The position numbers and the translations under genes were made by a program. Below are positions 581 to 46,800 of a DNA stretch of 64,000 nt, piece by piece. Position 1 is the first letter of the stretch, and each line of letters opens with the position of its first letter. Under the pieces are notes generated by a model that searched no databases, was not told the DNA's origin, and saw only the letters and a program-made list of their open reading frames with translations. Origin of the DNA: a virus; the IMG/VR virus record IMGVR_UViG_3300035698_024657, positions 1 through 64,000 of that record; one strand, 5' to 3'.

Positions 581-771
581 GTAGGACCATCATCAAGATC
601 TGTAAGAACACCCGTTTAGAAGAAGTAGAAAAGAATGTCAATGATTGGCTCGCAAAAATGCATGAAGACTATCAAGGTGTTGAAGTAGTCAGTATGCGCC
701 AAAGTGTGCTTACGTTCAAGAACGAGATTAATTACATCCTCACAATTTGTGTTAAGTATCGCCAGCCATGA
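577..771 (+). CDS. hypothetical protein
   Basis: GGAG SD; ATGA overlaps on both sides. Confidence 0.6.
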   Translation: MSRTIIKICKNTRLEEVEKNVNDWLAKMHEDYQGVEVVSMRQSVLTFKNEINYILTICVKYRQP

Positions 772-1067
772 TAAATAAAGTAAAGGAAAAGGAAATCCGT
801 ATACAGACGGCATTAGGAAGTCTTGGTGAAGAATACCGTAATCACCTTTGTAGGGGGCAAACGCCCATAACGTCCAAAGGTACAAGAAAATGTATACTTT
901 GCGGATTAAAAAGAATACATAAAGGCGATAAATTTTACCAAGTAAACATGGGCTTATCGGGGTATCTTAAACCTTACATTATCAACATTTGTGAAACATG
1001 TAGTTGGTTACCCCTTCAGACGATTAACGCAATTATAGATAATCATAATAATGGGCTTATAAAATAG
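768..1067 (+). CDS. Zn-finger protein with KExxIQxALG tag
   Basis: KEKEIRIQTALGSL at N-terminus; CILC...CETC pairs. Confidence 0.65.
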   Translation: MINKVKEKEIRIQTALGSLGEEYRNHLCRGQTPITSKGTRKCILCGLKRIHKGDKFYQVNMGLSGYLKPYIINICETCSWLPLQTINAIIDNHNNGLIK

Positions 1068-1077
1068 GATAGACAAG

Positions 1078-2073
1078 ATGCAAGAACTTCCTCCTCTACG
1101 TTCTAGAGATGAATGCGAGAAACAACTAAAAGTGGAACTGGCAGTAGGGGCTATCGACAATATTGATGGCCTAATTACACAGGGCCATGAAACTGCAATT
1201 GAATATGGGTGCCAACTACTCTTAGAAGAGATTAGACTCAAAGTAGCGGCAAGAACAAAATTGAAACCCAACATAGTGCAACACCTATTAAGGGATAGCG
1301 TCCCTAAAATAAGGCTGACTGTAGTAAGTACTAATTGGACAACATTAACACCGGGGCAACAAGAAGTATTCATCGCAGAAACTGCGGAAATATTCAAAGA
1401 AATACCCACACATGTGAAAGACAACGTACACAAAGGGTATTATCGCAGCGGAGAATGTTTCAACGAAGGCATTAGTATGCGTGCATTCGTCATAGAAGAA
1501 GCAATGTACGCCGCAATGGTAGCGCAAGACGAACAAAAAGTTCTAGACTATATTGACATAGTAGGACTAAGTATAGAAAACAATCAAAAGTTTCTACGAG
1601 ACTTAGACGTTTTTGTAAACATGCTCAAAGGTATGCCAAAAGTTTTCCACATGTTCTGGGAGAAAATAGGAAAAACTCGGCGCAACTTTATTCGACTAAT
1701 TTTAGCTCACCCCAATGAAGAGGTACGTCGAAAAGAAATTGAACGTATTTTAGATCCGGCAACACGAAAAGGTGATTTAAGTAACTGGAGAGAGTCAATT
1801 GGGGATGGTGACAGAAGTAGACCCCTCAAAGAAAAAATTCTACATTGCTGGGTAGATGATCCCAGTGTACAAATTAGAAGATACATTGCAGCAAATACGA
1901 CATGTGTTGAGGTACTCCGTAAACTCTCCTGTGATCTATCTACCTCAGTAACTGTGGTGGCCATGCCGAGACTACGAACCTATTCGAAACGAAAGAGCTA
2001 TTCAAAAGGTTACTCACAGATGTACAATGCAAGGAAGAAAGCAAAAAAAGAAGCAGAAGAAAATAATGGGTAA
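1078..2073 (+). CDS. hypothetical protein with C-terminal HEAT/LRV-like repeats and degenerate tag
   Basis: 331 aa; DDPSVQIRRYIAAN..VLRKLSCD repeat; N-terminal EKQLKVELAVGAI. Confidence 0.7.
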   Translation: MQELPPLRSRDECEKQLKVELAVGAIDNIDGLITQGHETAIEYGCQLLLEEIRLKVAARTKLKPNIVQHLLRDSVPKIRLTVVSTNWTTLTPGQQEVFIAETAEIFKEIPTHVKDNVHKGYYRSGECFNEGISMRAFVIEEAMYAAMVAQDEQKVLDYIDIVGLSIENNQKFLRDLDVFVNMLKGMPKVFHMFWEKIGKTRRNFIRLILAHPNEEVRRKEIERILDPATRKGDLSNWRESIGDGDRSRPLKEKILHCWVDDPSVQIRRYIAANTTCVEVLRKLSCDLSTSVTVVAMPRLRTYSKRKSYSKGYSQMYNARKKAKKEAEENNG

Positions 2074-2336
2074 AAATAGCCCGAGGAGCAGTAACCTCTA
2101 TTATATAGGGTAATTATAGAGGCTCTATAACTAATATAGATCCTAATATATTATTATAGATCTTCTGTATATAGTCTTCTGTTCTTAATATAACTGGGAC
2201 TTCGACCATTGGACAATCGAGGTAATTTCCTTGTAACTCGTTGGTAATCAAGAGGACACTAAAAATATTTGACCATTGGACAATTTTTACAAATCTGCTG
2301 AAATCTTGGACACGGTCAAGTACACATTAACATAGG
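2074..2336. repeat. AT-rich intergenic region with direct repeats (origin-like or regulatory)
   Basis: GACCATTGGACAAT at 2204-2217 and 2271-2284; TATAGATC and TCTTCTGT repeats; no ORF. Confidence 0.45.
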
Positions 2337-2576
2337 ATGGATGATATGGACAAAGAAGTACTTGACATGTTTCATGCTCGAATAAATGAAATTATGCAAA
2401 CTCTTGAGGGAGCAAGAGACCAGGTTTCATTGGATGAGTACTTAGAAAGCCCCGCTACAGGTAAGTTGATAGTTCCAAAATTTGACGATGTGTCTTTAGA
2501 GGATCTTCAGCTTGAACTCGACACAGCTTTACAACAATTACAGGATTTTATAAACATAGTCGGTGAACACATATAG
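2337..2576 (+). CDS. hypothetical acidic protein
   Basis: 79 aa ORF on the coding strand. Confidence 0.55.
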   Translation: MDDMDKEVLDMFHARINEIMQTLEGARDQVSLDEYLESPATGKLIVPKFDDVSLEDLQLELDTALQQLQDFINIVGEHI

Positions 2577-2595
2577 TCAAAATAGGTAAGATTTT

Positions 2596-2626
2596 TTGAC
2601 TCTTTTGACTATAACGATTGTATAAT
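2596..2626 (+). promoter_or_regulatory. putative sigma70-like promoter
   Basis: TTGACT (2596) N19 TATAAT (2621) upstream of AAGGA SD and the 2658 ORF; spacer is long. Confidence 0.35.
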
Positions 2627-2657
2627 AAACAGAGCAATAATACTGAAAGGATAAGAC

Positions 2658-2897
2658 ATGCCGGCAACTTCCGAAGAAGCAGTTAAATATATCACAGACT
2701 CCTTGGTTACTGGTGAACTGCTTATGAAAGATGCGTGCAATGCTCTTGGATGGAGTTTTCCAAGAATTCGCTCAAGGGCGTTAACGATAGCCAAAAAGTT
2801 AGATGGTACAATCATAAAAGAGGCGCGCGGTAGGTATCGGCTTGAACCTAATACCACCAACGTACAAATACCATCTACTGATGAGGAAGAGGTTTAA
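2658..2897 (+). CDS. winged-helix DNA-binding protein
   Basis: MKDACNALGWSFPRIR HTH followed by IIKEARGRYRL wing. Confidence 0.55.
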   Translation: MPATSEEAVKYITDSLVTGELLMKDACNALGWSFPRIRSRALTIAKKLDGTIIKEARGRYRLEPNTTNVQIPSTDEEEV

Positions 2898-3814: not shown

Positions 3815-3997
3815 ATGACACAGAAAGAATTTGATATTCAACGGGCTCTTGGAGTAATTTCAATAGAGTATAAATTAGGTTTTTGTGATTCTTGTAAAAC
3901 ATGCCAGCCCTTCAGAAGAATTACGCCAAATAGCCGTTGGTACATTTGTTCTCCATGTCGCCAAATAGGAAGACATACGTATTTGGCACAGCATTAA
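3815..3997 (+). CDS. Zn-ribbon protein with KEFDIQRALG tag
   Basis: MTQKEFDIQRALGVI; CDSC...CSPC. Confidence 0.65.
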   Translation: MTQKEFDIQRALGVISIEYKLGFCDSCKTCQPFRRITPNSRWYICSPCRQIGRHTYLAQH

Positions 3998-4507: not shown

Positions 4508-4897
4508 ATGACTTACAAAGAACTATTAGTTCAAAATGCTATAGGTACAACAAATGAATACGTCGTACAAATTCAAATACCCCTTAGAGCTGTCTCGACC
4601 TTATCTATAAAGGTTAATGCTATTTCAGAAGAACATGCGGTAGAACAGGCACAGCATCTCTGTGCAATACAATCACATGACGACATATTAACTCAAGCAG
4701 TTGGGGTCATCTCCGCACCCACTCGTCCGCCTATAATGGAGTTTGATGATGAACGTCAGTGGGAATTTGGGGCGGCTGAATGGTTCCCTTCTAAATCAGT
4801 TTCTGAACAATGTGGTAGTCTAACGGGGCGTATAACCCTTTCTGCGAACCCTTGCGAGGAGGTTCCTCGTCTATATAAACCAACAGGTGATAAATAG
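4508..4897 (+). CDS. hypothetical protein with tag
   Basis: MTYKELLVQNAIGTT. Confidence 0.6.
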   Translation: MTYKELLVQNAIGTTNEYVVQIQIPLRAVSTLSIKVNAISEEHAVEQAQHLCAIQSHDDILTQAVGVISAPTRPPIMEFDDERQWEFGAAEWFPSKSVSEQCGSLTGRITLSANPCEEVPRLYKPTGDK

Positions 4898-5178
4898 TGT
4901 CTGATATAGATGATCCTGTAGATAGACGAGATAAAGAAATAAGGGTGCACCTTGCTCTGGGTACATTGGATGTCAACAAATTCTCAGGTAAAGATCTGTT
5001 AGCCGTAAAATGTGTTGATACAATGTTAGCTATTAAACCCATATGGATTGAAAAGCGTCGCAATGATTATGTAGGCAAAAAGGGTTGGGAACATATTATG
5101 TTGGGACGGAGTCTCAACTTTTTCGGAATGCCCAGGGCACTGCGTAATGAAGAAATTCTACGTCAAGAAGAGATATAG
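4897..5178 (+). CDS. hypothetical protein with tag
   Basis: RDKEIRVHLALGTL; GTG start overlapping upstream stop. Confidence 0.6.
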   Translation: MSDIDDPVDRRDKEIRVHLALGTLDVNKFSGKDLLAVKCVDTMLAIKPIWIEKRRNDYVGKKGWEHIMLGRSLNFFGMPRALRNEEILRQEEI

Positions 5179-7752: not shown

Positions 7753-8127
7753 ATGACGCCACTCCAATACTTGTTGCTCTATCTTAGCCTGAACTTTATA
7801 CTGACAATAATTTGGTTAATTATCCCCTTAAGTGTAAATACAATACGCAAAAACGCTGGCCTTACTCCAAAACTGCGTATTTGGCCGATAGATGACTGTA
7901 TATATCATACGAAAGGCGTGGATACGCTCACAGGCACAGTAGGTGCCTTCTGTGTATCAACTGTAATTGCTACACCATTGTTGATTTCCTGCATAATATA
8001 TCGGGGTCTTCATACGCCCATAAAAAGGGTCTGCAAATATCTTAAAGGTATTATATGGTGGATAGTTACATCAAAAGAGGATAGAGTACAAGTCGCATTA
8101 GGTACAGTACCAGAAGAAGAGGAATAG
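7753..8127 (+). CDS. membrane protein with C-terminal tag
   Basis: Two hydrophobic segments; TSKEDRVQVALGTV; paralog of the next gene. Confidence 0.7.
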   Translation: MTPLQYLLLYLSLNFILTIIWLIIPLSVNTIRKNAGLTPKLRIWPIDDCIYHTKGVDTLTGTVGAFCVSTVIATPLLISCIIYRGLHTPIKRVCKYLKGIIWWIVTSKEDRVQVALGTVPEEEE

Positions 8128-8130: not shown

Positions 8131-8496
8131 ATGACCAATCCTATATTTCATGCAGAGCCGTGGATGATAATTACTTACTTCACAATTAACTGTATCATTT
8201 CTATGATATGGCTAGTTATCCCCGTAATAATAAACGCGAAGCGTCAAGAATATGAACTTCCTGCGGCAATGGTGATCTGGCCGATGCGACCCAAATTCTT
8301 TAGGAACTCTTGGCTAGGTTTAGCAATAAGATGTTTTATATCGGGTACGCTCATCGTGCTTCCTGCTATGTTCATATACATTATAGGCCATACTATTTAT
8401 CTTACTATCAATTGGGTAGCTAACTCATTGGCTTTTACTAAAGAAGATAAAGTACAAATCGCTATAGGCACATTACAGAAAAAGGATACGAAATAG
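8131..8496 (+). CDS. membrane protein with C-terminal tag
   Basis: IWLVIP...IWP shared with 7753; TKEDKVQIAIGTL. Confidence 0.7.
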   Translation: MTNPIFHAEPWMIITYFTINCIISMIWLVIPVIINAKRQEYELPAAMVIWPMRPKFFRNSWLGLAIRCFISGTLIVLPAMFIYIIGHTIYLTINWVANSLAFTKEDKVQIAIGTLQKKDTK

Positions 8497-8801: not shown

Positions 8802-8892
8802 TGTCCGATGTAGAAAATAATTTGTCTTGGGACTATATTAATAGCTTAACCTTGGAAACCAATAACTTGTCATCGTAAGATGAAGGAGTAAA

Positions 8893-13697: not shown

Positions 13698-14003
13698 ATG
13701 GGTAATTATCCTCATTGTGATTTTATCGTGGATGAAAGGGAAAGTATTATGACTATTGAAGAAGCCATTGCCCTAATGGACGAAACAGATGAGGGTTGGG
13801 CCAAAAAGGGTGAGTTACTTGCACCATTGGAAATCTTTAAGAAATACAAACCAGATTTTTGTCTCAAAGATTTGGAACCGGCACACGATGAGATTTACTT
13901 TCCAACGTTTGACGAAAAGATGACGAAAGACGATATTCTGTTTTTACATCGATGCGGCTTTCATCTGGATGAGTCATACGAATGCTGGGTGATGTTTACA
14001 TAA
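13698..14003 (+). CDS. hypothetical protein
   Basis: PAHDEIYF...LHRCGFHLDE..W; start uncertain. Confidence 0.6.
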   Translation: MGNYPHCDFIVDERESIMTIEEAIALMDETDEGWAKKGELLAPLEIFKKYKPDFCLKDLEPAHDEIYFPTFDEKMTKDDILFLHRCGFHLDESYECWVMFT

Positions 14004-14260
14004 TGGCAAAAACTATCGCTCCACAATATAGAGTATATGATGAGCATATAACGCTCAAAGAATTCAAAATACAATATGCATTAGGGGCATTGCATTGGCA
14101 CAAACGCTACCATATGGCAGGCGACTCCACCACGCCTATAGAAATACTGGCTATTTTAGCTAAAGATCCGAACGACCTTGTACGCCGCAGAGCTAGGCAC
14201 AGTCCCTGTTGGAAGGGGCACAATTTCAGTTGGAGGAGGTCTCGGTTAAATGACGGTTAA
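13982..14260 (+). CDS. tag + LRV-repeat protein (probable start 14003)
   Basis: TLKEFKIQYALGAL; TTPIEILAILAKDPNDLVRRRA. Confidence 0.7.
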   Translation: MLGDVYIMAKTIAPQYRVYDEHITLKEFKIQYALGALHWHKRYHMAGDSTTPIEILAILAKDPNDLVRRRARHSPCWKGHNFSWRRSRLNDG

Positions 14261-14477
14261 GGAATTCGAAATACAGTATGCATTAGGGTCGATAGACTGG
14301 CTGCATATGTATAACCTTGCAAGAAGTCAACGTACTCATCCAATTATATTGAGTACATTACGAGATAATCCAGATTATCTCGTCAGTCGAAGAGCAAAAC
14401 TTAACCCACGTACAAATAAGAATACAGTAAGGTATATTAAACGTAGCAACGCTACAGAAAGGAACCATGGATCTTAA
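14250..14477 (+). CDS. tag + LRV-repeat protein
   Basis: MTVKEFEIQYALGSI; THPIILSTL...VSRRAKLNPRT. Confidence 0.7.
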   Translation: MTVKEFEIQYALGSIDWLHMYNLARSQRTHPIILSTLRDNPDYLVSRRAKLNPRTNKNTVRYIKRSNATERNHGS

Positions 14478-14495: not shown

Positions 14496-16583
14496 ATGAA
14501 CGGCAACGAATCAACCTCAGAAATTTTGATGAATGCTCGGTACCTTATGAAAGGTGAAAATTGGACAGATTTAACTAAACGCGTAAGTACTGCAATCGCG
14601 GTGGCCGAGAAGACTCCAGAGCTACAAAAGGAGTGGGCCAAAAAGTTTGCTGATATTATACAGAAGAAAGAGTTCGTACCTGCCTCCCCGTTTATGATGA
14701 ACGCAGGGAAAAAAGAAGAAGGTATGAACAACCACCTTTTCTCTTGTTATGTTTTACCAGTAGAAGACTCTCTCGAACAAATTTACAAAACAATTGCCGA
14801 TGCTGCGAAAATATTTCAAGTAGCCGGTGGGGTAGGGTACGACTTTTCAACACTTCGACCCAAAGGATGTTCTACGTCTACATCTGGTGGAACAAGTTCA
14901 GGGCCCATGTCCTTTATGCGGGTATTCAACGCATCTTGTAATGAATTGAAAGCAGGGGGTCGACGTAAGGGCGCACAGATGGGTGTGTTCCGAATAGATC
15001 ATCCCGACATTGAAGAATTTATCAACGTCAAACAAGATTTAACACAATTAACTAACTTCAATCTCTCAATAGCTATTACCGATGCGTTTATGCTGGCAGT
15101 ACGTAATGATGAGATGATCATGCTGCAATTTGCGAGTCATCCTGAGAAAGATCATGAGGTTAGTGCAAAGTCTCTTTGGGATCAGATCGTAAAAGGGGCA
15201 TGGAGATGTGGCGAGCCGGGCGTCTTGTTTATCGACAGAATAAACGATAAAGATCCCATTGGAGGCATTTTTGCGACTAACCCCTGTGGAGAGATTCCTC
15301 TCCCTCCTTATGGTTGCTGTAATTTAGGCTCGATTAATCTGGCGCAGATGATCCGTAGGGGAAAATTCAATTGGGACCGCTACAAAGAGATTATTCATAT
15401 TGCTATTCGTTTCCTCGACAATGCAATTGACGTAAATACCTACACGTTGCCTGAAATTAAAGAGCAACAATTAAACCAACGTCGCGTAGGTTTAGGTGTT
15501 ATGGGCTTGGCTGACTTATTCGTCAAGTTAAGTATTGCTTACGACTCCAAAGAAGCGCGTGAAATGAGTGAGGAATTAGCGAGGATACTGCACGAAACCT
15601 CAAAAGCCGCGTCAGAAGACTTATCTAAAGAGAAAGGCGCGTTTCCTGCGCAGAATAGCAGTAAATTGAAGGATTCTTTACCTATTCGTAATGCTACACG
15701 TACCGCGATCGCACCAACTGGATCAATTAGCATTGTTGCAGAATGTTCTTCGGGAATTGAACCTATTTACGCGATAACTCTCGAAAGGCGCCACGATTTA
15801 GCAGACCATGATGTAATCGTCGAAATCAATCCACTATTCCTTGAAATTGCAAAGAAGCAGCAGTTCTATTCAGAAGCCCTTATTGCAGGAATCCGCGAAA
15901 ATAACGGATCTTGCCAAGGCGTAGAAGGTGTACCAGAGGATGTTCAGAATATCTTCAAGATTGCTGCAGATATTAAACCAAAAGATCATGTAGAGCAATT
16001 GGCGGTTTGGCAAGGAAATATTGATAGTGCAGTTAGTAAGACTATCAATTTAGCCTCTTCTGCTACGGAAGAAGATATTGAGCACATCTTCTCAATGGCC
16101 TACGATCTTGGATGCAAAGGTATTACCGTGTACCGTGATGGATGTAGAGGTGCACAAGTTCTTGCTTCTGGAATACAGAAACTGGAGCGACCTGATGTAG
16201 TGCCAGGTAAGACCATCCGTGTTCCTACCAGTTTAGGTACAATGTATATTACCGTCGGTGTTATAGAGGGTCGGCCATTTGAAGTCTTCGTTAGTCTACG
16301 AACCGGAGGAACAAATGCGGGTGCTGATGCAGAGGGTCTGGCACGAATGGTCTCTCTTGCACTGCGAACGAAAGTAAGCGTCTATGACATCGTTAAACAA
16401 CTTAAGGGAATTGGATCAGGTGCAGCTGTCTTCCATAAAGGAAGGGTAATCACGTCTATCCCTGATGCTATAGCTTATGCGCTGGAGAAATATTTCCTGG
16501 ACTCAAAAGTCGCACATCCAGATGATCATGCACAATTTGCGAGCGGCTCCGAAGGCATGTATTGTAAAGATTGCGACGATTAA
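14496..16583 (+). CDS. nrdJ: class II (B12-dependent) ribonucleotide reductase with C-terminal TSCPD-like domain
   Basis: PASPFMMNAG, SCYV, GGVG, RRKGAQM, TNPCGE, CNLGSINL, APTGSIS, KGITVYRDG. Confidence 0.95.
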   Translation: MNGNESTSEILMNARYLMKGENWTDLTKRVSTAIAVAEKTPELQKEWAKKFADIIQKKEFVPASPFMMNAGKKEEGMNNHLFSCYVLPVEDSLEQIYKTIADAAKIFQVAGGVGYDFSTLRPKGCSTSTSGGTSSGPMSFMRVFNASCNELKAGGRRKGAQMGVFRIDHPDIEEFINVKQDLTQLTNFNLSIAITDAFMLAVRNDEMIMLQFASHPEKDHEVSAKSLWDQIVKGAWRCGEPGVLFIDRINDKDPIGGIFATNPCGEIPLPPYGCCNLGSINLAQMIRRGKFNWDRYKEIIHIAIRFLDNAIDVNTYTLPEIKEQQLNQRRVGLGVMGLADLFVKLSIAYDSKEAREMSEELARILHETSKAASEDLSKEKGAFPAQNSSKLKDSLPIRNATRTAIAPTGSISIVAECSSGIEPIYAITLERRHDLADHDVIVEINPLFLEIAKKQQFYSEALIAGIRENNGSCQGVEGVPEDVQNIFKIAADIKPKDHVEQLAVWQGNIDSAVSKTINLASSATEEDIEHIFSMAYDLGCKGITVYRDGCRGAQVLASGIQKLERPDVVPGKTIRVPTSLGTMYITVGVIEGRPFEVFVSLRTGGTNAGADAEGLARMVSLALRTKVSVYDIVKQLKGIGSGAAVFHKGRVITSIPDAIAYALEKYFLDSKVAHPDDHAQFASGSEGMYCKDCDD

Positions 16584-17398: not shown

Positions 17399-17905
17399 AT
17401 GAGTAAAATGTATTTGATGGTTGGCAACATAGGTACAGGAAAAACTACGACTACAACAGTATTGATGCAGGATACCCGTAATGTCCTCACCGTGTCAGAT
17501 GATGCTATCGCATTAGCTCTCAATGGTGGGTACTATGGTCATGATATTTGGACCGATAAACATTGGCCGCTATATTCCCGGATCAAGGGAGAAATCGCCC
17601 GTGCGACATTAGAAACAGACTTTGACGTAGTCATAGATGGTACACATATGTCAATAAAAAGTCGTAAACGTTTTATTGACATAGCAAAAGAACTTGACGT
17701 CCCGGTAATTGCATACGTACATAGAAACTCGGCAGAAGGTCTTGCCCGGAGATTGGCAGATCCCAGAGGATCTAATTTAGATGTATGGCGAGAAGTACAT
17801 GCAAGGTTTGAAAAAAGTTTTGAAGACCCTACTACAGATGAAGGCATTAAAACTATAATTGACGGCGCACTTATGCGTATACCTGGACTCTCTAATGCAA
17901 ATTGA
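17399..17905 (+). CDS. P-loop kinase (AAA_33, polynucleotide-kinase-like)
   Basis: MVGNIGTGKTT; VSDD; VVIDGTH...R; PTTDEG. Confidence 0.85.
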   Translation: MSKMYLMVGNIGTGKTTTTTVLMQDTRNVLTVSDDAIALALNGGYYGHDIWTDKHWPLYSRIKGEIARATLETDFDVVIDGTHMSIKSRKRFIDIAKELDVPVIAYVHRNSAEGLARRLADPRGSNLDVWREVHARFEKSFEDPTTDEGIKTIIDGALMRIPGLSNAN

Positions 17906-18068
17906 TCCTTGTCCTACTTGTAATCATACTGAGTTAGAAGTACGACAAGGGTGGTGCACTTATTATGTTTACTGTACACACTGTAATACAAGTGGACCAG
18001 AAGATACTAATAAAGTGCGCACAATCCGAGAATGGAATAAAATAAGAGAAAGGGTTACCCATGAATAA
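17859..18068 (+). CDS. Lar-like Zn-ribbon protein
   Basis: PCPTC...YVYCTHC..SGP...WN. Confidence 0.6.
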   Translation: MTAHLCVYLDSLMQIDPCPTCNHTELEVRQGWCTYYVYCTHCNTSGPEDTNKVRTIREWNKIRERVTHE

Positions 18069-19029
18069 GGAAGAGTGGCGGGAGAAATTAGAAGAACGTG
18101 GCGAGAGTGTACTGATTGATGGAATTTCAAAATATCAGCATGTTTCCCGCATTACTAATGATGAAACTGAAGGATTACTCGACGGCGAAGTAATCGTACA
18201 GAATAAGATTGATGGTGCAAACTTTAACGTGGCATGGACCTCGGAACGCGGCCACATTATTGCATCGAGGAATAGCGCTAAAAGTCTTGGTGGTGAGCCT
18301 AAAGTAGGTTTTCGCGGTGCAGTAGAATACTGTCTAAATCATCCCGGTATAATGCTCATTAGTAAAAGATTCATTCTTCGCGGTGAATGGTTAGTAAGGC
18401 ATAGTCTAAATTATCCAAAAGACAGTATGCACCACTTCTACGTATTTGATGTGCAACGATATGAGGATCATTCATACTTACATCCAGATGCATATATCCC
18501 GCTATTAGAAAAATACAGTATTAGGTATATTCCGATACTCGCAAGATTGACAAACCCCTCAATAGAAGAATTGACTAAATTAGTCGAGGGTCCGGATGAG
18601 TTTGGTGCAGAGCAAAAAGAAGGCATCGTAATTAAACGATACGACTTCGTCAATAAGTATGAGCGTGTGCAATGGGGTAAAATCATTCATCCATCTTTTG
18701 AAATAAAGAATAAGCTTGTATTTAAGCCGAAGAATGCGGATGACATTACAATCAAATTCGCATCCGAAACCGTTACGCAACATTTAGTACTAAAGACGAT
18801 TGAAAAAGTTAAATCAGAAGATCCTGATGGAAATATCAACATTAAACAAATGGCTCAAATCTTGGGCTTAGTTTGGTACGATGTGTTTCACGAAGATTTA
18901 TGGAACTTTGTACGTGATCAAAAAGTAAGTGATTTCAATTTCCACGATGCAAGGAAATTAGTCTATCAGGCTACTCGAGAAATAGCGGTGGCATATTTTA
19001 ATGGTACATTGGATACGCCCAAAGTTTAA
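18061..19029 (+). CDS. RNA ligase (Rnl2-like nucleotidyltransferase)
   Basis: KIDGAN, SRN, GEW, FYVFDV, EGIVIK, KII motifs. Confidence 0.85.
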   Translation: MNKEEWREKLEERGESVLIDGISKYQHVSRITNDETEGLLDGEVIVQNKIDGANFNVAWTSERGHIIASRNSAKSLGGEPKVGFRGAVEYCLNHPGIMLISKRFILRGEWLVRHSLNYPKDSMHHFYVFDVQRYEDHSYLHPDAYIPLLEKYSIRYIPILARLTNPSIEELTKLVEGPDEFGAEQKEGIVIKRYDFVNKYERVQWGKIIHPSFEIKNKLVFKPKNADDITIKFASETVTQHLVLKTIEKVKSEDPDGNINIKQMAQILGLVWYDVFHEDLWNFVRDQKVSDFNFHDARKLVYQATREIAVAYFNGTLDTPKV

Positions 19030-19285: not shown

Positions 19286-19825
19286 ATGAGATACGTAGTT
19301 ATAGATTTAGAGTGCACCTGCTGGGAACGTGGGGATAAAAATAGGCAACCTCACGAGATCATCGAAATAGGCGCAGCCTTCCTTGATGAAAAATATCAAC
19401 TTATCAAAACATTCTCACAATTCGTCAAGCCGGCGGATAATATAGAATTGACTGAGTACTGTACTGAGTTAACTACGATTACCCAAAAAGATATCAACAA
19501 CGCACCACCTCTCTCTGTCGCTGTAAGTAAATTAGAGGAATGGATGGGGCCCGTTGATGATATCACTTTCTGTTCGTGGGGGTATTTTGATAAAGCTCAA
19601 CTCATTGATGAGTGCAATTTGCACGGGATAACTTACCCATTTACAGATGATCATATTAACATTAAGACCAGATTTTCTGCAAAACTACAAAGAACAAAAA
19701 AGATTGGCGTAAAGAAGGCATTACGTATCCTTGGAATACCTTTTGAAGGTACTCCACATCGCGCGATTTCTGACGCAATAATGACCGCAAAGATATTTAA
19801 ATTTATTATGGAAATACCTGCATGA
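19286..19825 (+). CDS. DEDDh 3'-5' exonuclease (ERI1/KapD-like)
   Basis: IDLECTC, EIIEIGA, SWG.FD, HRAISDA. Confidence 0.9.
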   Translation: MRYVVIDLECTCWERGDKNRQPHEIIEIGAAFLDEKYQLIKTFSQFVKPADNIELTEYCTELTTITQKDINNAPPLSVAVSKLEEWMGPVDDITFCSWGYFDKAQLIDECNLHGITYPFTDDHINIKTRFSAKLQRTKKIGVKKALRILGIPFEGTPHRAISDAIMTAKIFKFIMEIPA

Positions 19826-20055
19826 CTACTAAAGAATTTGAAATACAATATGCTCTCGGAATACTGTCTGAAGACCAAAAATTTAAAATGGCCAAGAACG
19901 TACAGACTTCAAGACGTGTCTTATCTATTCTTGCTAATGATATTAACCTGGCCATCAGGATCAGGATACACGATAACCCCAATACTCCCTGGACTACGGT
20001 AAATATGATATGGAATCGAGACAGGATGCAGATAATGCAATCAGGATTAGTATGA
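19822..20055 (+). CDS. tag + LRV-repeat protein
   Basis: MTTKEFEIQYALGIL; LSILAND...IR....NPNTP. Confidence 0.7.
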   Translation: MTTKEFEIQYALGILSEDQKFKMAKNVQTSRRVLSILANDINLAIRIRIHDNPNTPWTTVNMIWNRDRMQIMQSGLV

Positions 20056-20603
20056 ATAAATCCGAAGCCGAAAACCCTTATGCACGGACACCATTACGTG
20101 TACGCGCTGTTGATGGTCCCACTTTTCCAATACATGCCCAAGAAGACGTGGATCTTGATTGTCTGGACCCAGAATTTCTCCACGTATGGTGTGACGGTGG
20201 AGGCAACTGCGGTCCTGCATCTTTGGGGGTAGTAGTCGTTGATAAGGGTACAGTAATTATGACATTCGGTATTTTTTTAGGCGCACATAACCAAACAAAT
20301 AATATTGCAGAATTGAATGCTATTTGGAAAAGTCTTCGACTCGTTAAACATTTATTTAGGCCAGTTAAAATTTATTCTGATTCGGCATATGCGATTAACT
20401 CAATTTGCGAAATATTTCACGGTAAAAAGAATAGAGAATTAATAGATAGTATAATTGATTATACTAAACAATATCCGGTTTCAGTAGAATTTGTCAAAGT
20501 ACGGGGACATTCAGGATTAATATATAATGAAATTGCAGATTCAATTGCGAGCTGGTTTTTAAGTGAACATAAAAACAAGAAGAAGGGAAGAAAAAGTAAA
20601 TGA
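20010..20603 (+). CDS. rnhA: ribonuclease HI
   Basis: WCDGG, TNNIAEL, IYSDS.YA, KVRGHSG..YNEIAD; start may be 20052. Confidence 0.9.
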   Translation: MESRQDADNAIRISMNKSEAENPYARTPLRVRAVDGPTFPIHAQEDVDLDCLDPEFLHVWCDGGGNCGPASLGVVVVDKGTVIMTFGIFLGAHNQTNNIAELNAIWKSLRLVKHLFRPVKIYSDSAYAINSICEIFHGKKNRELIDSIIDYTKQYPVSVEFVKVRGHSGLIYNEIADSIASWFLSEHKNKKKGRKSK

Positions 20604-21286
20604 GTCACTTCTATGTTTATATGTATTTAGACCAGAATAATGTTCCTTTTTATATTGGAAAAGGTAATGGTAATCGATACAAAGTGCAATCTCATTTACG
20701 CGAAGACCAGGCATTTCTAAAGAATAAGATCAATAAAGTAGGTAATTCTAATGTTAAGATCCACTTCCTCCATAAAGATATTTCTGAAGAAGAAGCTTTT
20801 CGTTGGGAGAGATACTGGATTAAGTACATTGGACGTAGAGATCTAAAAGAAGGTACTCTCTGTAACTTGACCGATGGTGGAGAAGGACAATCGGGTTTTA
20901 TTCATTCTGAAGAATCTAAACAAAAGATGCGTAAAGCTCATAAAGGTGAAAAGAATTCTATGTATGGTAAATCCCATACAGAAGTAGCGAAGCAAAAAAT
21001 GTGCACCATACACAAAGGTAAAACTCATTCTGATGAAACCCGCGAAAAGATGAGTAAATCCCAAAAAGGGCGAAAACATCCAGAAGGGACTAAACAGAAA
21101 ATGAGTAAAACTAAAAAAGGTAAAACTCATTCTGTTGAAACTAAACGAAAAATCAGCGATGCTACGAAAGGTAAGCGAATAGGTAAAAAGAACCCTATGT
21201 ATGGTAAACGACATACTCCAGAAACTCGGCAGAAAATGCGCAATGCTAAAGAAAAGAAGAAAAATGGGAAAAATGGAGCTGCGTGA
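20600..21286 (+). CDS. GIY-YIG homing endonuclease with NUMOD3 repeats
   Basis: FYVY...FYIGKG..R; NLTDGGEG; several HS.E.K.KMS repeats. Confidence 0.9.
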   Translation: MSHFYVYMYLDQNNVPFYIGKGNGNRYKVQSHLREDQAFLKNKINKVGNSNVKIHFLHKDISEEEAFRWERYWIKYIGRRDLKEGTLCNLTDGGEGQSGFIHSEESKQKMRKAHKGEKNSMYGKSHTEVAKQKMCTIHKGKTHSDETREKMSKSQKGRKHPEGTKQKMSKTKKGKTHSVETKRKISDATKGKRIGKKNPMYGKRHTPETRQKMRNAKEKKKNGKNGAA

Positions 21287-21602
21287 AATTGAAGTACAGC
21301 GGGCTTTGGGCCTAACCGAATTTTACTGGATTACATTATGGACAGGTATGGGGAAACGGGAAGAACATCTAAATTTGGATCAATTATTTCATGAAGTTTT
21401 TCCGGTAGCCGCGCGTTACGTAAATGGGCAATATACCTGTTTTTCTGTAGAATCCTCGCCTAAAGAGTTGAAAGTATTTACATCTCGTCTCCATAATGAA
21501 TTACATTCATTATATAAGCAATTACATATCAAGATATATAAAGGGGTCTCGGATAAGGGTGACCTTGTTTGCCATAAATGGATAGGATATAACGCATCAT
21601 GA
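21273..21602 (+). CDS. hypothetical protein with tag
   Basis: MELREIEVQRALGLT; start 21264 or 21273. Confidence 0.6.
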   Translation: MELREIEVQRALGLTEFYWITLWTGMGKREEHLNLDQLFHEVFPVAARYVNGQYTCFSVESSPKELKVFTSRLHNELHSLYKQLHIKIYKGVSDKGDLVCHKWIGYNAS

Positions 21603-21844
21603 AAGTACGCGGAGATGATCATCCAGGAATTTTGACTCTTGCCGAGATACAGGCACAATTAGCCGTAGGTTCCCTAGTTAAACGCGATTTGCATCGCATG
21701 GTACATGATTATGAGTGTTCTCGCTTCTATTTACCTGAAAACGTCGTAGCCTTCCTTGAAGGTTATTTCGGTAGAACTATTCGTAATAAGAATAAGTTTT
21801 ATTTTCGCGAAAAAGAGGAATCATCCGTAAAAGAACGGGATTAA
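21599..21844 (+). CDS. hypothetical protein with tag (last + strand gene)
   Basis: TLAEIQAQLAVGSL. Confidence 0.55.
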   Translation: MKVRGDDHPGILTLAEIQAQLAVGSLVKRDLHRMVHDYECSRFYLPENVVAFLEGYFGRTIRNKNKFYFREKEESSVKERD

Positions 21845-22099
21845 TTGACTTGAATTGCATTCTGGACAATGTTGAGATTCCTCTGTTACTATCGTATAGC
21901 TTACGATATGCGTCCAGTATCTTCCGCCCCTCTGCAACTTTGTAGGCTTCTGTACTGTTTTGAGCCCACCTAATGGTGTCACTAATCTACATTCTTCACA
22001 TAATACACATTTAATTGTGCCTAATGCGAGTTGGATTCTTATTTCTTTTTCTGTTAGTTTACCTTCTTCAGAAATCGAAGATTTTGTATTGGTAGTAAT
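21821..22099 (-). CDS. Zn-ribbon protein with tag and non-canonical (ATT) start (not in ORF track)
   Basis: Reads ..KLTEKEIRIQLALGTIKCVLCEEC...HCPECNSSQLIPFFYG*; AAGGAGG 8 nt before ATT. Confidence 0.6.
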   Translation of the reverse strand: MTTNTKSSISEEGKLTEKEIRIQLALGTIKCVLCEECRLVTPLGGLKTVQKPTKLQRGGRYWTHIVSYTIVTEESQHCPECNSSQLIPFFYG

Positions 22100-22682
22100 A
22101 CCCTCTCCCTCCTTTACCTAATATCAGCCCTACCGAGTGTTTCTTCCACGAAATGTCACCCATTAATACCACTTCTTCAAGATGATCCCATCCTACTCCT
22201 GCCGCGATTGCGAGCCCGAGCTTTTTCTTAAGCGGTTGATAATTTTCATTGAGAAGTATTGCAATTGGGCCCACATCAGGTATAGTAGTTACCTTAACTT
22301 TACGGAAATCACGCTTATCGGGGAATTCTAAGCTAACTGACAGACTACGGTGCTTAATGTCCCATTCCCATTGATCATTGCGCGTATTCACTGAAGCTAA
22401 ACCGTGTACGAGCGGAGTATCGAATGAGCTCTTATATGTACCGTAATGATGGATGACGGTAGTAGAATCGTCAACTACTATAGTATCTGCATCTGCGTAT
22501 ACTGTATCGCTTACTGTGATATACGTGGTATCAAATACTGTAAGAGGGATTTCGACTGTAACTGTATCGATTACTTGTTCAGACAGGGCCGTTTCTAAAT
22601 GGTCAATTTTACTTGTGGCCCAAAACCACCCACATGCGATGGCGATGATTAGTCCCACTAATACCCAACGTTCGAACGTCAT
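22068..22682 (-). CDS. membrane-anchored envelope protein (spanin-like?)
   Basis: N-terminal TM; DT-repeat linker; C-terminal beta strands ending in F. Confidence 0.55.
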   Translation of the reverse strand: MTFERWVLVGLIIAIACGWFWATSKIDHLETALSEQVIDTVTVEIPLTVFDTTYITVSDTVYADADTIVVDDSTTVIHHYGTYKSSFDTPLVHGLASVNTRNDQWEWDIKHRSLSVSLEFPDKRDFRKVKVTTIPDVGPIAILLNENYQPLKKKLGLAIAAGVGWDHLEEVVLMGDISWKKHSVGLILGKGGRGYYYQYKIFDF

Positions 22683-31117: not shown

Positions 31118-34100
31118 TTACCTTCTCCCTATACGATGACCTACTTTCCTCATTGCGGCCGCCGCTGGGCCACTTTGTCCCTCATTTCGAAATAAGCCCG
31201 GGGTACGTAAACCTGAACGGTGTTTTCCTACTGATTGATGCTTAACCGGCCTGCCAGTCTGCTTGAATAAGTCTTTATATACGGATTTATCACCAGATTG
31301 ATACAATCCATGACGATATACTAAATTTGCAAGAATATCTGCCCAGTCATCCGTTTGTATTGGACCACTATCAGCGTGACCATATCTAACAATATCACCC
31401 GTAGTCGTCTTCGTTAAGTATTTTAATTCGAGTTGCAATTGCTCTACCCAACCTGAAACATATACAGGTGCCTTCGCAAAAGTATCTAGAGGAGGTTGAC
31501 TGAAACAATGCACTTGGCCTAAATTCAATTTCTCCAAGAAATTAGTGTACATTATATTTTTGTACTTGTTAGTGAAGAAGGTTTCAAGTGCGGCATATCC
31601 CGCATTTCGCAAATCAAGGATACTTTGCATAGAATTCCATTGATCGAATACAATTTCCAATAACGTTCCTTGATAACTCAAATGCGCTGCCAGCGCTTTG
31701 ATAAATTGAGTTACTTTTCCGACATCAACAGGAACTTGAACAACTTTGCCGGTAACTTGATTGTGCACTGCTTTAGGTCTAAATCCTTGAAGACCGTCAA
31801 CAATAACATTACCGCCTTCACAATGTCCCCAACCAATAGCATACGTATCACTTTTAGATGCGGGATCAACAGAAATAATATATTGACTTGCCCATTTACC
31901 TAAATAAGTCATCCGTAAATGAGGTTTGATCATTTCGTCAATCCGTTCAGAATTAATGAACGAAGTACTTGGTTCACCGAAACGTGCACCATATTCCATA
32001 TTGGCGCCAACTGGATCTTTCTTGAAATCAGAATCAAATACTTTTCTCGGGTACTTTGGATTACATTCCCATGTGGATAATTGCATCAACAAATAGTTTT
32101 CATTTGTCTCAACCATTCCACCAGTTTGCTCACTACCTCCAGCAAGGCAATAGTTCCTATAAAATTCTCCGCCCTTTTCCCTGGGTGAACTGATCATAAT
32201 GACCTTACCATCAAAGATCTCTTTATCAGCCATGATAAAGTCTTTGGTGGAAGGTGACAACGCTTTGAGCATGGCGTAATCTGTTTGGGGCATTTCTGCT
32301 AAAATGTCTTCTTCAGTGGCCCCACCGCCTACTGTTTTAGTACGCTCAAAGTGGGCAAACTCATCAAGGATTAAACATATAATAGCTTTACCACGTTTCG
32401 ATGCGGCAGACGTAGTAAATGCAGCTACCATGATAGAACCTTCTAATAGGTTCTTCTTCGTTACGCCTTTTGCGCGGGCCTCATTATATTTACGAATCCT
32501 ATCATTTTCATATAAATCAGCGGGAGTGAATAAACGAAGCTCTTCAGAGTTATCCTTACTCCAATCTACGTATTTTTCAAAGAAAGGTATACGGCGAATG
32601 TTATCCTTACACAGTCTGAAAGGATCCTGCGCCTGTGAACCATCCTTCGCACAGTTATGTACAAAAATACCGTCAGCAAAAAAATTATGCGTTTCCATAA
32701 CTTCAATATCATAAGTTTTTTGAATACCTAATGCAGAAATTTCTCGAATACGCGTCCACTTAAGACCATCGCAAATTAAATGATTTTTAAATTCTTTATT
32801 AGTCCCATTTTTTGATATTGTAAACCGCCAAATTGGGCCTTCTCCGTAATTCGTACGCATATAAAATGTTGTTACGTTCGAAACATTCCAGCCAACGGAA
32901 ATGCATAAATCTCTTAAAGACCTAATTAATTCTTCATTTGATAAAGAAATTGTAGTAATTCCATTCGTTCCTTGATGGCCATCACTATGAATTACTCCCT
33001 TTAAAAGTGCAATTTTTAACGTATCCTGTAACCCGAAAACCCATGAAGGTAATTTTTTAGTTTTGGCTCCCCTATCAAAGCCCCATTGTAAAATATTATT
33101 ACACGCAACTGTAGAATGTACACGGTAAAAATAATTATGCGTGCCAACACCTATAAAATTGGGGTCCTGAAATTTTACTGGCGAAAACCACGCGATTTTT
33201 GCCTGATCTATATATTTCTGCTTTTCAATATCCGTATCGGGAAGGGCAATAGTTAACACGCCACTTGTAGGATTTTCAGCCCTACCACAGAAACAGATAC
33301 TCCCATCGCCTAAATACAACCCTAATTGTTCCATAATTTCTAAAGTTGCTTGCGCGCCATTAGGAAGAGAGCTCCCAGATTGTTCGGGAACATCAGTTAA
33401 AATTCCAATATAATCACCTACACGTAGCGCAGATGCGTCAACCCATTCAGGTTTACGGGGATTCGCAGGATTGACTCCTTTAGAAAGTCTATAAAATCTA
33501 TGTTTCCAACTGGACTCAATTGTACGATTGCCTGTTTTAATTTCAAGGATTTCCTTTTCCCCTGATTCCCAAATATGCTTAATTGTAGAAGTTTGAAGAC
33601 CTTTCTCTCCTTTAGAAAGAATAGAGTCGCCTGATTCTAATTCACATATTCTTTTAGTGTCTCCCGCAGGTAAAGTTACTCGAGAATTTGCTGATAAACA
33701 GTTAACAATCCAAATTGGGTGTCGTCTACGAATATTGTAATACGCTTGAGGATCACCCTTGCAGATAAGCTTATATGCTTCGTATGTTTGAATAAACGAG
33801 ATCAGACTACTCTTACCAGAACGTCGTCCCAATACAAGTATAAGAATTTCTACGAACTTTAGAGGATCACGTTTTGCGAGCTCCCAATCAATCTGCCATA
33901 CATTTTTCATAATGTCGAGGACAGTTTGTTCTTCCTCTGAGAGGGGATATTTCTCCCATAGGCCATAAATTACTTTGATGAGCAAAGATTGGAAAGGAAA
34001 TAGCCGTTCACCTAAATACTTAGAGGAGGTACAAAAGATATACGCGTCGACTTCATTGATCGCCGCAGTTGCGGCCACGCGCGATTTATATTGAGTATCA

Positions 34101-34147
34101 ACGGTCGATTTAAAAGTAAATGGTTTTTGGGATTGAGATTTCGGCAT
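31118..34147 (-). CDS. terminase large subunit with intein
   Basis: GRRSGKS Walker A; LILDE Walker B; ISSP; SVDPA nuclease Asp; DQWNS; TDDWAD. Confidence 0.9.
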   Translation of the reverse strand: MPKSQSQKPFTFKSTVDTQYKSRVAATAAINEVDAYIFCTSSKYLGERLFPFQSLLIKVIYGLWEKYPLSEEEQTVLDIMKNVWQIDWELAKRDPLKFVEILILVLGRRSGKSSLISFIQTYEAYKLICKGDPQAYYNIRRRHPIWIVNCLSANSRVTLPAGDTKRICELESGDSILSKGEKGLQTSTIKHIWESGEKEILEIKTGNRTIESSWKHRFYRLSKGVNPANPRKPEWVDASALRVGDYIGILTDVPEQSGSSLPNGAQATLEIMEQLGLYLGDGSICFCGRAENPTSGVLTIALPDTDIEKQKYIDQAKIAWFSPVKFQDPNFIGVGTHNYFYRVHSTVACNNILQWGFDRGAKTKKLPSWVFGLQDTLKIALLKGVIHSDGHQGTNGITTISLSNEELIRSLRDLCISVGWNVSNVTTFYMRTNYGEGPIWRFTISKNGTNKEFKNHLICDGLKWTRIREISALGIQKTYDIEVMETHNFFADGIFVHNCAKDGSQAQDPFRLCKDNIRRIPFFEKYVDWSKDNSEELRLFTPADLYENDRIRKYNEARAKGVTKKNLLEGSIMVAAFTTSAASKRGKAIICLILDEFAHFERTKTVGGGATEEDILAEMPQTDYAMLKALSPSTKDFIMADKEIFDGKVIMISSPREKGGEFYRNYCLAGGSEQTGGMVETNENYLLMQLSTWECNPKYPRKVFDSDFKKDPVGANMEYGARFGEPSTSFINSERIDEMIKPHLRMTYLGKWASQYIISVDPASKSDTYAIGWGHCEGGNVIVDGLQGFRPKAVHNQVTGKVVQVPVDVGKVTQFIKALAAHLSYQGTLLEIVFDQWNSMQSILDLRNAGYAALETFFTNKYKNIMYTNFLEKLNLGQVHCFSQPPLDTFAKAPVYVSGWVEQLQLELKYLTKTTTGDIVRYGHADSGPIQTDDWADILANLVYRHGLYQSGDKSVYKDLFKQTGRPVKHQSVGKHRSGLRTPGLFRNEGQSGPAAAAMRKVGHRIGRR
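32654..33700 (-). mobile_element. intein with LAGLIDADG endonuclease in terminase (349 aa)
   Basis: N|CLSANSRV start; HRF block B; LGLYLGDG and LKGVIHSDG; TYDIEV..THNFFADGIFVHN|C. Confidence 0.92.
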
Positions 34148-45099: not shown

Positions 45100-45214
45100 T
45101 TTGTTCCTCCTTCCTATCTTTTTTAACTTTATGTGCAGTCCAATAAACCGTTACCGCTGAACGGATAACATCCCATACGATCATCCCTATTAATACAAAT
45201 AACCAGTCCATATA

Positions 45215-45850
45215 TCACCTAATATACGATACACCTTTTTTCTGGTGCACTTCAATTGTATTAGTTGCAAATTCCATCAATTTTTCATTATGCGTAATAA
45301 GAATTATTTGACGATCAAATTGTTTCGATACTTCAGTCAAAAATTTTCCAAATGCCCCAACATGTTGTGCAGATACATTTTTTCCGGGTTCATCTAAAAT
45401 TAACGGACCTTTGAGGTTCATCAATTGCATAATGATTATACGTAACGAAATACTAATCACGTCTGCAATACCACCACCATACGTAATTAAAATCTCACCT
45501 CGAATTGGGTTTGTATCTACTCGAGATAAATCAAATTCAGCTTCAACCTGGTTTCTTTTGGTGATGAAATTAATATTGAATTGAATAGTAGGATCATCAA
45601 AAATATCGCGTAAACCTTGAGTCACCAAAAGTTCAACTTTCGCTTTAATGCGGTCACGGGAAACTATATTACATTGTTCCAATAACCGTAGAGATGCTTC
45701 AAGGGAAGTGTTCTCCTTTTTCGCAGCATCACATTTGGCGAGAGCCGTAACAAGTGAGTGCTGCGCGGCAGATTTTTCACCATCAAATTTAGCTAATGCC
45801 ACCTTCGTGGTAGTAAGTTTATCTAATAACGTATCTAATTGGTGTGACAT
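45215..45850 (-). CDS. Rad50/SbcC C-terminal half
   Basis: Coiled coil, YGGG signature variant, LILDEP Walker B, ILITH H-loop. Confidence 0.85.
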   Translation of the reverse strand: MSHQLDTLLDKLTTTKVALAKFDGEKSAAQHSLVTALAKCDAAKKENTSLEASLRLLEQCNIVSRDRIKAKVELLVTQGLRDIFDDPTIQFNINFITKRNQVEAEFDLSRVDTNPIRGEILITYGGGIADVISISLRIIIMQLMNLKGPLILDEPGKNVSAQHVGAFGKFLTEVSKQFDRQIILITHNEKLMEFATNTIEVHQKKGVSYIR

Positions 45851-45851
45851 A

Positions 45852-46091
45852 CTATAGGTCTACTGTAGAAAGTTGTACTTCAACCTCTTCAAACTTTTTT
45901 GCAATATCTTGCTGCAACGTTACAATACTATCTTTAATAGTTTGAACAGATTCACCCTGTTCTTCCATTTCTGCAATAATTTCAGCTCGACGTTGCTGTA
46001 AACTTTCTAATTGCGTAGTGGCCCGAATTTTCTCATTCCTATGTTTAATTACCTGTGCCTCTAACGCAGCCAATTCTGCTTCACTGTGCAT
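45852..46091 (-). CDS. coiled-coil protein
   Basis: Continuous heptads; directly upstream of the Rad50 C-half. Confidence 0.6.
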   Translation of the reverse strand: MHSEAELAALEAQVIKHRNEKIRATTQLESLQQRRAEIIAEMEEQGESVQTIKDSIVTLQQDIAKKFEEVEVQLSTVDL

Positions 46092-46800
46092 TACTACTCC
46101 TTAACAATTCGAGAAACGCATTTTTACCGTATTTAAGCATAAAACTAGCAGGATCTTCACCATCAGGAAGATTGACTGCAACTACATGTATTTTATTATC
46201 TAAATATACCTCATCAAGATACTTTTGCGCCTTTAACTGTGCTTTCTTTCCCGCATCATCTGCATCAAACACAATATATACCTTTTGTGCATAGCGCGCT
46301 AACGTTCTTGCCGCCGCAGGTTTAAACGCAACACCAGAAGAAGCGACTGTGCTAAGTAACCCATATTGATGCAAAATAAGTGCATCCATTTGACCTTCAA
46401 CCAATATTGCAGTACCTGTTTTAATGATCGCAGGCTTTGCTAAATGGTACAAATAAAGAAGTCTGCCTTTTTGAAATTTTGCAGATTCCTTTACATTAAT
46501 GTATTTCGCAGGCGCATTTATTAATGTACGCCCAGTCCAGCCTACAGGATGCCCAAAAGATGAATGAATTGGAAATATTAATCGATCATGGAAGCGTTTA
46601 CCTATTTTAGGTTGAGAAGGTGCATACCCTAATTGGTGTTTAATCACAGATTCTTTAGATACACCACGTGACTTTAAATACGCCTTCACCTCAGGTGCAG
46701 CCTTTAATTCTGCGTGATAATATTCAATTGCCATCTGAATTTTATCTATACCTAAAGCAAGTTGAATTTCTTTCTCTCTTCGTGTAAGATCATTCAACAT
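46081..46800 (-). CDS. dnaG: DnaG-type primase core (TOPRIM) lacking the Zn-binding domain
   Basis: YL.SRG, LGYAP, RLIFPI, GR, KYIN, VEG.MD, FDADDAG, DPA; N-terminal REKEIQLALGI tag. Confidence 0.88.
   Translation of the reverse strand: MLNDLTRREKEIQLALGIDKIQMAIEYYHAELKAAPEVKAYLKSRGVSKESVIKHQLGYAPSQPKIGKRFHDRLIFPIHSSFGHPVGWTGRTLINAPAKYINVKESAKFQKGRLLYLYHLAKPAIIKTGTAILVEGQMDALILHQYGLLSTVASSGVAFKPAAARTLARYAQKVYIVFDADDAGKKAQLKAQKYLDEVYLDNKIHVVAVNLPDGEDPASFMLKYGKNAFLELLRSSNAQ

Follow-up and report, generated by a model that had tools for sequence, protein, structure and literature searches.

In phage T4, a short terminal peptide, the capsid targeting sequence, is the sole conserved part of diverse accessory proteins; this peptide is strictly N-terminal and is cut by the prohead protease. 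The encapsulation peptides of microcompartments are amphipathic helices of 15–20 residues, which are located at the N- or C-terminus of unrelated enzymes and present one contact face; their sequences are not conserved, and the linker that connects them to the body is poorly conserved as well (PMC4594438). Here, a terminal peptide that partly resembles both, referred to as the tag in the following, is described for a viral DNA stretch of 64,000 nucleotides (the window), which comprises positions 1–64,000 of the IMG/VR record IMGVR_UViG_3300035698_024657 (G000; 130,254 bp in total).

The tag shares with the T4 capsid targeting sequence that it is the only conserved part of diverse phage accessory proteins. 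In contrast to the T4 peptide, 15 of the 79 tags found in six related records are C-terminal and two are internal, no protease site was seen adjoining them, and the tag is predicted to form a capped helix without a linker to the body. Each genome encodes about 40 carriers of it, among which are membrane proteins and a primase. The location of a short (in the case of the tag, predicted) helix at either terminus of unrelated proteins is common to the tag and to the encapsulation peptides; unlike these, the tag has five positions conserved at 95%–100% and no linker. Genes for microcompartment shells were not seen in the set of scanned proteins. A third relation exists to the first helix of LRV and HEAT repeat proteins (Pfam PF01816 and PF25591), because LRV-like bodies are the largest class among the tagged proteins (carriers) and structural alignments to LRV domains cover the tag helix. 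However, PF01816 matches were obtained for only two carriers out of 78 and for no tag region out of 45, and the tag is also attached to Zn-ribbon, alpha/beta, membrane, and primase bodies. In a further article (PMC7824862), it is proposed that phage BCS1-type AAA+ proteins may translocate folded proteins into heads, and an expansion of Zn ribbons to about 35 copies is reported for phage G; neither is the same thing as the tag.

Detection of the tag in the phage genome

In the initial annotation of the window, 14 instances of the tag had been listed. With a regular expression for the motif, 12 matches were obtained for the window and 18 for the complete G000, compared to a mean of 0.08 and a maximum of one match in 50 base shuffles of the record and no match in the reversed six-frame translations. 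For the called proteome of G000, 14 matches were counted versus 0.055 in 200 residue shuffles. When 2,658 stop-to-stop open reading frames (ORFs) were searched with a hidden Markov model (HMM) derived from the 18 sites, these sites scored 18.5–29.0 bits, the top score among the remaining 2,640 ORFs was 4.6 bits, and the score distribution was bimodal. The final HMM was iterated over the six related records, and none of 20 shuffled proteomes reached 10 bits with it (maximum 8.4). The frequency of the motif is thus far above the level of shuffled sequences. Six more copies are located outside the window at 67–75 kb of G000, and the total for this record is 18–19 tags. The tag is a real, strongly selected, and lineage-specific feature, which is more widespread than first noted (18–19 copies in G000 versus 0.08 expected). 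Twelve of the 14 instances listed initially are robust, whereas the copy at 21599/21632 is weak (10.3 bits) and the copy in gene 1078 is unsupported.

A second IMG/VR contig (G001, 59,461 bp) begins with 127 bp that match the start of G000 exactly in reverse complement (window 1–127; L073 1–127). At its other end, G001 shows synteny to the head module, which in G000 is located at the far end. Because of the exact 127-bp overlap and the synteny, both contigs are regarded as one genome of at least about 190 kb. G001 adds 21–23 tags, which results in 39 tags at ≥12 bits and 42 tags at ≥10 bits for both contigs together. At ≥10 bits, the final HMM recognized 36 of the 301 called proteins of G000 and G001, about one gene in eight.

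Consensus, codon usage, and predicted structure

The consensus of 301 distinct 16-mers is M-T-x-K-E-[IF]-[KE]-[IV]-Q-x-A-L-G-T-[LI]-x. In this set, for which every metagenome locus was chosen for the presence of at least one perfect canonical tag, the conservation is 100% for E5, 99% for Q9, 97% for A11, 95% for L12, and 98% for G13. Some tags of G001 contain Asn instead of Gly13.

Selection acts on the tag peptide. In the 18 tags of G000, the invariant Gly is encoded by GGC (6), GGT (5), GGA (4), and GGG (3), the Ala by GCA (9), GCT (8), and GCG (1), and six codons are in use at the Leu/Ile position. Since synonymous codons vary freely, the peptide and not the nucleic acid is under selection, which agrees with the initial annotation, where this had been suggested from the codon variation between copies.

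Among the 79 tags of the six records, 62 are N-terminal, 15 are C-terminal, and two are internal. The earlier statement that the tag is always near a terminus therefore holds for 77 tags and fails for the two internal ones. In half of the G000 tags (9 of 18), exactly two residues separate Met1 from the core, and some C-terminal copies finish 2–3 residues ahead of the stop. Judging from the residue pattern, Thr2 to Glu5 look like a helix N-capping box and Gly13 together with the hydrophobic residue 15 looks like a C-cap. In the AlphaFold2 model A7 (alignment of 10 sequences, mean predicted local distance difference test score (pLDDT) 85.2), the tag covers residues 3–12 and forms the first of six helices. 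In model A8, which represents a family with C-terminal tags (4 sequences, mean pLDDT 73.5), the tag helix comprises residues 70–78; it is the block with the highest pLDDT (92) and is followed by a strand. Thus, the tag is predicted to be helical in both modelled families.

Diversity of the carriers

After masking of the tags, the 79 carriers of the six records were grouped into 56 body clusters (42 singletons), and an extended set of 377 carriers into 125 clusters (77 singletons), which bears out the "very different bodies" of the initial annotation. A single domain family thus does not account for the carriers, even though one repeat type is common to roughly a quarter of them. That they might be full-length paralogs of a single family is accordingly not the case for the set as a whole (125 clusters), but 87 of the 377 have an LRV-like body. 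The second class consists of helical proteins with "KG" repeats (42/377). At least two CxxC pairs are present in 27 and a hydrophobic membrane-type segment in 12 of the 377 carriers, and the other body types include Zn ribbons, alpha/beta and membrane proteins, the primase, and repeat proteins of about 260 amino acids.

Database searches gave few matches. Across 78 carriers, Pfam recognized LRV in two (E ≤ 0.05), Zn ribbons in two to three, and primase in one. Among the 18 carriers of G000, only the primase matched Pfam above the threshold or any PHROG family. No recurrent Pfam or PHROG family was found over the tag itself: each of the eight families detected matched only one of 45 tag regions, and none of these regions matched LRV (PF01816) at E ≤ 10. 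A Foldseek search with model A7 gave no match at E ≤ 0.001, and the best Z of 3.6 obtained for model A8 with VIA-align in wide mode is at chance level. A description of the tag was absent from the literature found, with tag heptapeptides included as queries. The initial view that no described family matches the tag is supported by these negative results from Pfam, PHROG, and the literature. One carrier, the 75-amino-acid protein encoded at 14250, was placed among LRV/HEAT clusters in the ESM Atlas, with template modelling (TM) scores of 0.57–0.62 to LRV clusters.

In all of 11 homologous carrier pairs, the tag was more conserved than the body (43%–79% versus 23%–62% identity). Even among 2,915 carrier pairs without body similarity, the mean identity of the tags was 48%. 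Two of the carriers are paralogous membrane proteins in which the tag is located right behind the last hydrophobic segment, and a globular body on which it could pack is absent. The tagged genes form tandem paralogous arrays; a gene of 163 codons heading one of these arrays looks like a dCMP deaminase gene, as judged by eye from the sequence.

The tagged primase (46081–46800, − strand) allowed for a comparison of orthologues. It consists of the DnaG catalytic core only and covers positions 114–365 of the 577 positions of phrog_6444. The orthologue in the related record G004, which is 77.5% identical over 218 residues, begins at the catalytic core and lacks the 14-residue extension that contains the tag. 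The orthologues in two near-complete relatives, G011 and G026, do not contain the tag either. These alignments show that the tag is portable, in that it was gained or lost on an orthologous primase, and the initial designation as portable is thereby substantiated. The zinc-binding and helicase-binding domains are missing in the primase, and the orthologues in the three relatives are equally short. The gene is nested between SbcD-like and SbcC-like genes in an SbcCD-like operon within 45215–49105.

Possible function of the tag

The tentatively favoured reading, to which we would not commit ourselves further, is that the tag is a portable helix by which the carriers dock to one common partner. 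It is preferred because two polar residues are fixed on more than 100 unrelated bodies and either end of the protein serves as the attachment site. It is also preferred because the tag occurs where there is nothing to cap and because it is present on or missing from an enzyme that functions without it. The tag would be a self-contained helix of about 15 residues, which probably originated at the start of small repeat proteins of the LRV/HEAT type, as their first helix, and may then have been copied onto unrelated bodies among hypervariable accessory genes. The setting would be one clade of myoviruses with genomes of about 190 kb, distant relatives of Bacillus phage G. The conserved face formed by Glu5, Ile/Val8, Gln9, Ala11, Leu12, and Gly13 would most likely be the docking surface for the one partner, and about 40 different proteins per genome would be handled as one group. 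We infer that a single partner exists. The tags mark the most variable part of the genome and concern about one gene in eight of a phage of about 190 kb. If one partner reads the tag, hundreds of unannotated proteins would have a common fate, for which head loading, handing to an unfoldase, and gathering at one site are candidates, and the tag would provide a portable handle of 15 residues for engineering.

Several results weigh against a docking helix. Both AlphaFold models show the tag as a confident, integrated helix and not as a loose tail. A linker is absent, and the body sets in with CxxC knuckles or a beta strand 3–8 residues past Gly13. As 87 of the 377 carriers belong to the single LRV-like class, the spread of the tag is partly plain paralogy. 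The alignment of the 75-amino-acid carrier to LRV-domain clusters in the ESM Atlas covers residues 1–63; it begins at residue 1 and therefore includes the tag. Furthermore, no common partner was identified in a phyletic screen of tagless relatives. The initial annotation had proposed a docking or address helix read by one hub protein; of this proposal, the short, conserved terminal helix stands, whereas the single hub is not supported by a partner. Two hub candidates also lose weight through the tagless relatives: G011 has a full-length homologue of an AAA+ ATPase of this phage, and the phage chaperonin is present in G026 and absent from G011 (see below).

Because of the integrated helix in both models, the LRV-like bodies in about a quarter of the carriers, and the missing hub, a fold-intrinsic origin stays a live rival, which we consider rather unlikely. 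According to this explanation, the tag is an N-terminal cap or nucleating helix of a fast-diverging LRV-like superfamily, which stabilizes small proteins, is occasionally moved by recombination, and has no common partner. The high pLDDT of the tag helix (about 85 in A7 and 92 in A8), the Atlas alignments, the size of the LRV-like class, the absence of a linker, and the tandem paralogous arrays of tagged genes are all in favour of such a helix. However, 125 body clusters should then not hold the same two polar residues at 99%–100%, and tags are found behind transmembrane segments and 2–3 residues from C-termini, positions that leave nothing for a helix to cap. Moreover, the primase folds without the tag in three orthologues, and the Pfam LRV model recognizes only 2 of the 78 carriers and none of the 45 tag regions.

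Instead of docking to a separate hub, the tag might be a self-associating helix that gathers its carriers into a mixed assembly or condensate. This explanation would agree with a tag that is short, helical, and amphipathic and is located at either end of many proteins, and with the presence of two tags in some proteins (4 of 113 library representatives, see below); encapsulation peptides are reported to drive condensation (PMC12339742). The interface provided by a helix of ten residues is small, however, and the near-invariance of Glu and Gln points to a specific polar contact more than to generic hydrophobic clustering; self-association is considered improbable. Still less probable is a leader or processing signal for a dedicated protease, modification enzyme, or exporter that is removed after Gly13. 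Most tags are located directly behind Met1, their last residue is small, 27 of the 377 carriers are small and Cys-rich, and a gene for a radical S-adenosylmethionine (SAM) protein is present in the genome. On the other hand, 15 of the 79 tags are C-terminal, some of them 2–3 residues from the end, the bodies include an enzyme of 239 amino acids and repeat proteins of about 260 amino acids, the radical-SAM gene is grouped with queuosine-type genes, and no peptidase or transporter was seen next to the tag arrays. A conserved element acting as DNA or RNA (promoter, recombination site, or RNA structure) that happens to be in frame would be compatible with tags at gene starts in dense arrays, but is so very unlikely that it can be set aside, because four Gly, three Ala, and six Leu/Ile codons are used freely at invariant positions and because the motif occurs in one reading frame only and also at the 3′ ends of genes.

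Candidate partners

For the docking helix, four types of partner were considered. If a partner exists, the prohead interior or a scaffold, as in the case of the T4 capsid targeting sequence, would be the foremost candidate by analogy, albeit a doubtful one. Tagged membrane proteins and a tagged primase would be odd cargo for capsid loading, and no tag-profile match above 4.6 bits was found in the other frames of G000, virion genes included. Slightly less probable are a Cdc48-like AAA+ ATPase of the phage, whose N-domain has diverged in the clade, and, on a par with it, a hub of the host. Another phage protein is the least probable of the four.

The gene at 45857–47251 of G001 (L075 5857–7251, + strand) encodes a Cdc48/p97-like AAA+ ATPase with a single module; the gene behind it is tagged and conserved. 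The N-domain of the ATPase can hardly be aligned with that of the homologue in the tagless G011, and the G001 protein has an extra acidic extension. Neighbours of this gene are the radical-SAM gene, a DUF366 gene, and a gene for a possible transglycosylase; further on, genes for the portal protein, a sigma factor, and a peptide deformylase are located. As a long shot by analogy to F-box families, the tagged proteins might form an arsenal of adaptors, in which the constant helix would plug into one remodelling machine, for example the Cdc48-like AAA+ unfoldase, and the variable LRV, Zn-ribbon, and other bodies would capture different host targets. In that case, a single engine might enable the phage to unfold, remove, or relocate many host factors.

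Ten proteins are conserved in the genomes with tags but missing in G011 and G026. Among these ten are proteins of 123, 126, 182, 205, 105, 71, and 179 amino acids and an LbH acetyltransferase, and three small ones are encoded just upstream of the portal gene. None of the ten could be tied to the tag in the phyletic screen. For co-folding, the tag (32 amino acids, alignment of 45 rows) was combined with three proteins, the clade-specific 182- and 126-amino-acid proteins encoded upstream of the portal gene and an acidic, scaffold-like protein of 230 amino acids. The resulting score was 0.13, compared to a mark of 0.32, which speaks neither for nor against any of the three.

A GroEL-type chaperonin is encoded at 57401–59074 (− strand; Cpn60_TCP1, 234.7 bits) and had been suggested as the hub in the initial annotation. 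It also occurs in G004 and G026, but not in G011. Since G026 is tagless, the presence of the chaperonin does not correlate with that of the tag, and it was rejected as a candidate. A multi-copy family adjoining some of the tags was identified as GIY-YIG/NUMOD3 homing endonucleases and was rejected as well. Three paralogues of this family are located at 20600–21286, 76388–76966, and 121564–122289.

Distribution of the tag

A scan of IMG/VR with a loose DNA pattern revealed several contigs with multiple copies, and the profile counted 19, 17, 12, 5, and 1 tags in five of them. With a strict pattern for the canonical N-terminal tag, only three IMG/VR contigs were matched. Among 21 further records that share the capsid protein, a single tag match was found in one short record. 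The near-complete relatives G011 (168 kb, capsid protein 73% identical) and G026 (182 kb, 56%) contain no tag, and a de novo search for terminal motifs in both detected no substitute, only a paralogous endonuclease family. Among cultured phages, Bacillus phage G is the closest; its capsid protein is 37.5% identical, and no tag was found in it at E ≤ 1. A megablast comparison of the window with named phages gave no match.

The strict pattern matched 96 metagenome stretches with a total length of 297 kb. At ≥12 bits, 299 tags were counted in them, approximately one per kb, with at least two tags in 74 of the 96 stretches. The untagged genes on these stretches resemble accessory genes of G000 and G001. 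In several metagenome loci (L161, L154, L163, and others), up to six tagged mini-genes of 40–85 codons each are located within about 1 kb. A profile search of 1.84 billion representative proteins yielded 113 proteins at E ≤ 0.001, only 12 of which come from the six records. A single N-terminal tag is present in 101 of the 113 and two tags in four, for example P0007, P0008, P0009, and P0014. Proteins of the P0007 type consist of tandem units of a tag and LRV repeats; no relative of P0007 was found in IMG/VR. The library protein P0080 (1,068 amino acids, tail-fibre-like) contains about a dozen D-x-D-V-Q-x-A-L-x-T-[IL]-D repeats, which are similar to the second half of the tag.

Tag copies in the window

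In the following, the positions of the core (K4–G13) in the window are given with the respective gene. On the + strand, the first copy is located at 789–818 in the N-terminal part of a Cys-rich protein (gene 768–1067, 99 amino acids) and was detected by the regular expression and the HMM (22.8 bits). The instance noted initially in the HEAT-like gene 1078–2073 (1117–1155, + strand) is unsupported as a tag, with Gln and Glu swapped at both invariant polar positions; it was not recovered by the final HMM, and the best match in this protein is located elsewhere (−3.1 bits). The cores at 3824–3853 (gene 3815–3997, 60 amino acids with CxxC pairs, 27.1 bits) and 4517–4546 (gene 4508–4897, 129 amino acids, 22.4 bits) are placed right behind Met1. 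The next gene (4897–5178, 93 amino acids) carries the core with His in place of Gln9 as residues 13–22 (4933–4962, 22.9 bits). The C-terminal tags of the two paralogous membrane proteins, both matched by the regular expression, are encoded at 8074–8103 (gene 7753–8127, 124 amino acids, seven residues ahead of the stop) and 8440–8469 (gene 8131–8496, 121 amino acids).

Three carriers on the + strand have LRV-like bodies. In the protein of 92 amino acids encoded at 13982–14260, the core corresponds to residues 26–35 (14057–14086, regular expression and HMM). In the other two, it is located behind Met1, at 14259–14288 (gene 14250–14477, 75 amino acids, 27.8 bits) and at 19831–19860 (gene 19822–20055, 77 amino acids, 29.0 bits). 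The core at 21282–21311 (+ strand, 21.1 bits) follows a Met codon at 21273 in an ORF listed as 21201 to 21602. The weak copy near the start of gene 21599–21844 (21641–21670, + strand, 10.3 bits) is degenerate, with Ala at positions 4 and 8.

Two copies are encoded on the − strand. The tag of the primase is located at 46750–46779 in the 14-residue N-terminal extension of the DnaG-type core (46081–46800, 239 amino acids) and was found with the regular expression. The other copy (22019–22048, 26.8 bits) is part of the open frame 22117–21824 with a Zn-ribbon-like body, in which no ATG, GTG, or TTG is present upstream of the tag (22058–22117, − strand). Judging from the sequence, an ATT located 8 nt after AAGGAGG and overlapping the end of the upstream gene is likely the non-canonical start of this gene. 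A fusion to the upstream ORF of 204 amino acids was rejected because the orthologue of this ORF in G011 ends at the same place.

Other features of the genome

The intergenic regions are enriched for a promoter-like motif, ACTATATTA, which is present in 9 upstream regions and in 22 copies across the genome. It is found at 8833, 11001, and 17219 of the window, at 129887 of G000, and, in G001, at eight intergenic sites (nine matches in total). Some accessory operons are preceded by the motif, as are two genes that belong to the head module or adjoin it. Intein or LAGLIDADG insertions are present in the genes for the large terminase, a folE2-type GTP cyclohydrolase, and the DnaB helicase (window 31118–34147 and 60952–62823; L002 611–3358). 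The auxiliary genes of the accessory region (14496–16583, 17399–19029, and 62839–63372) include one for a class II-like ribonucleotide reductase. In addition, an AAA_33 kinase and an RNA ligase encoded in the accessory region resemble a tRNA-repair pair, and PTPS/QueD-like and FolE genes in the same region suggest the synthesis of 7-deazaguanine.

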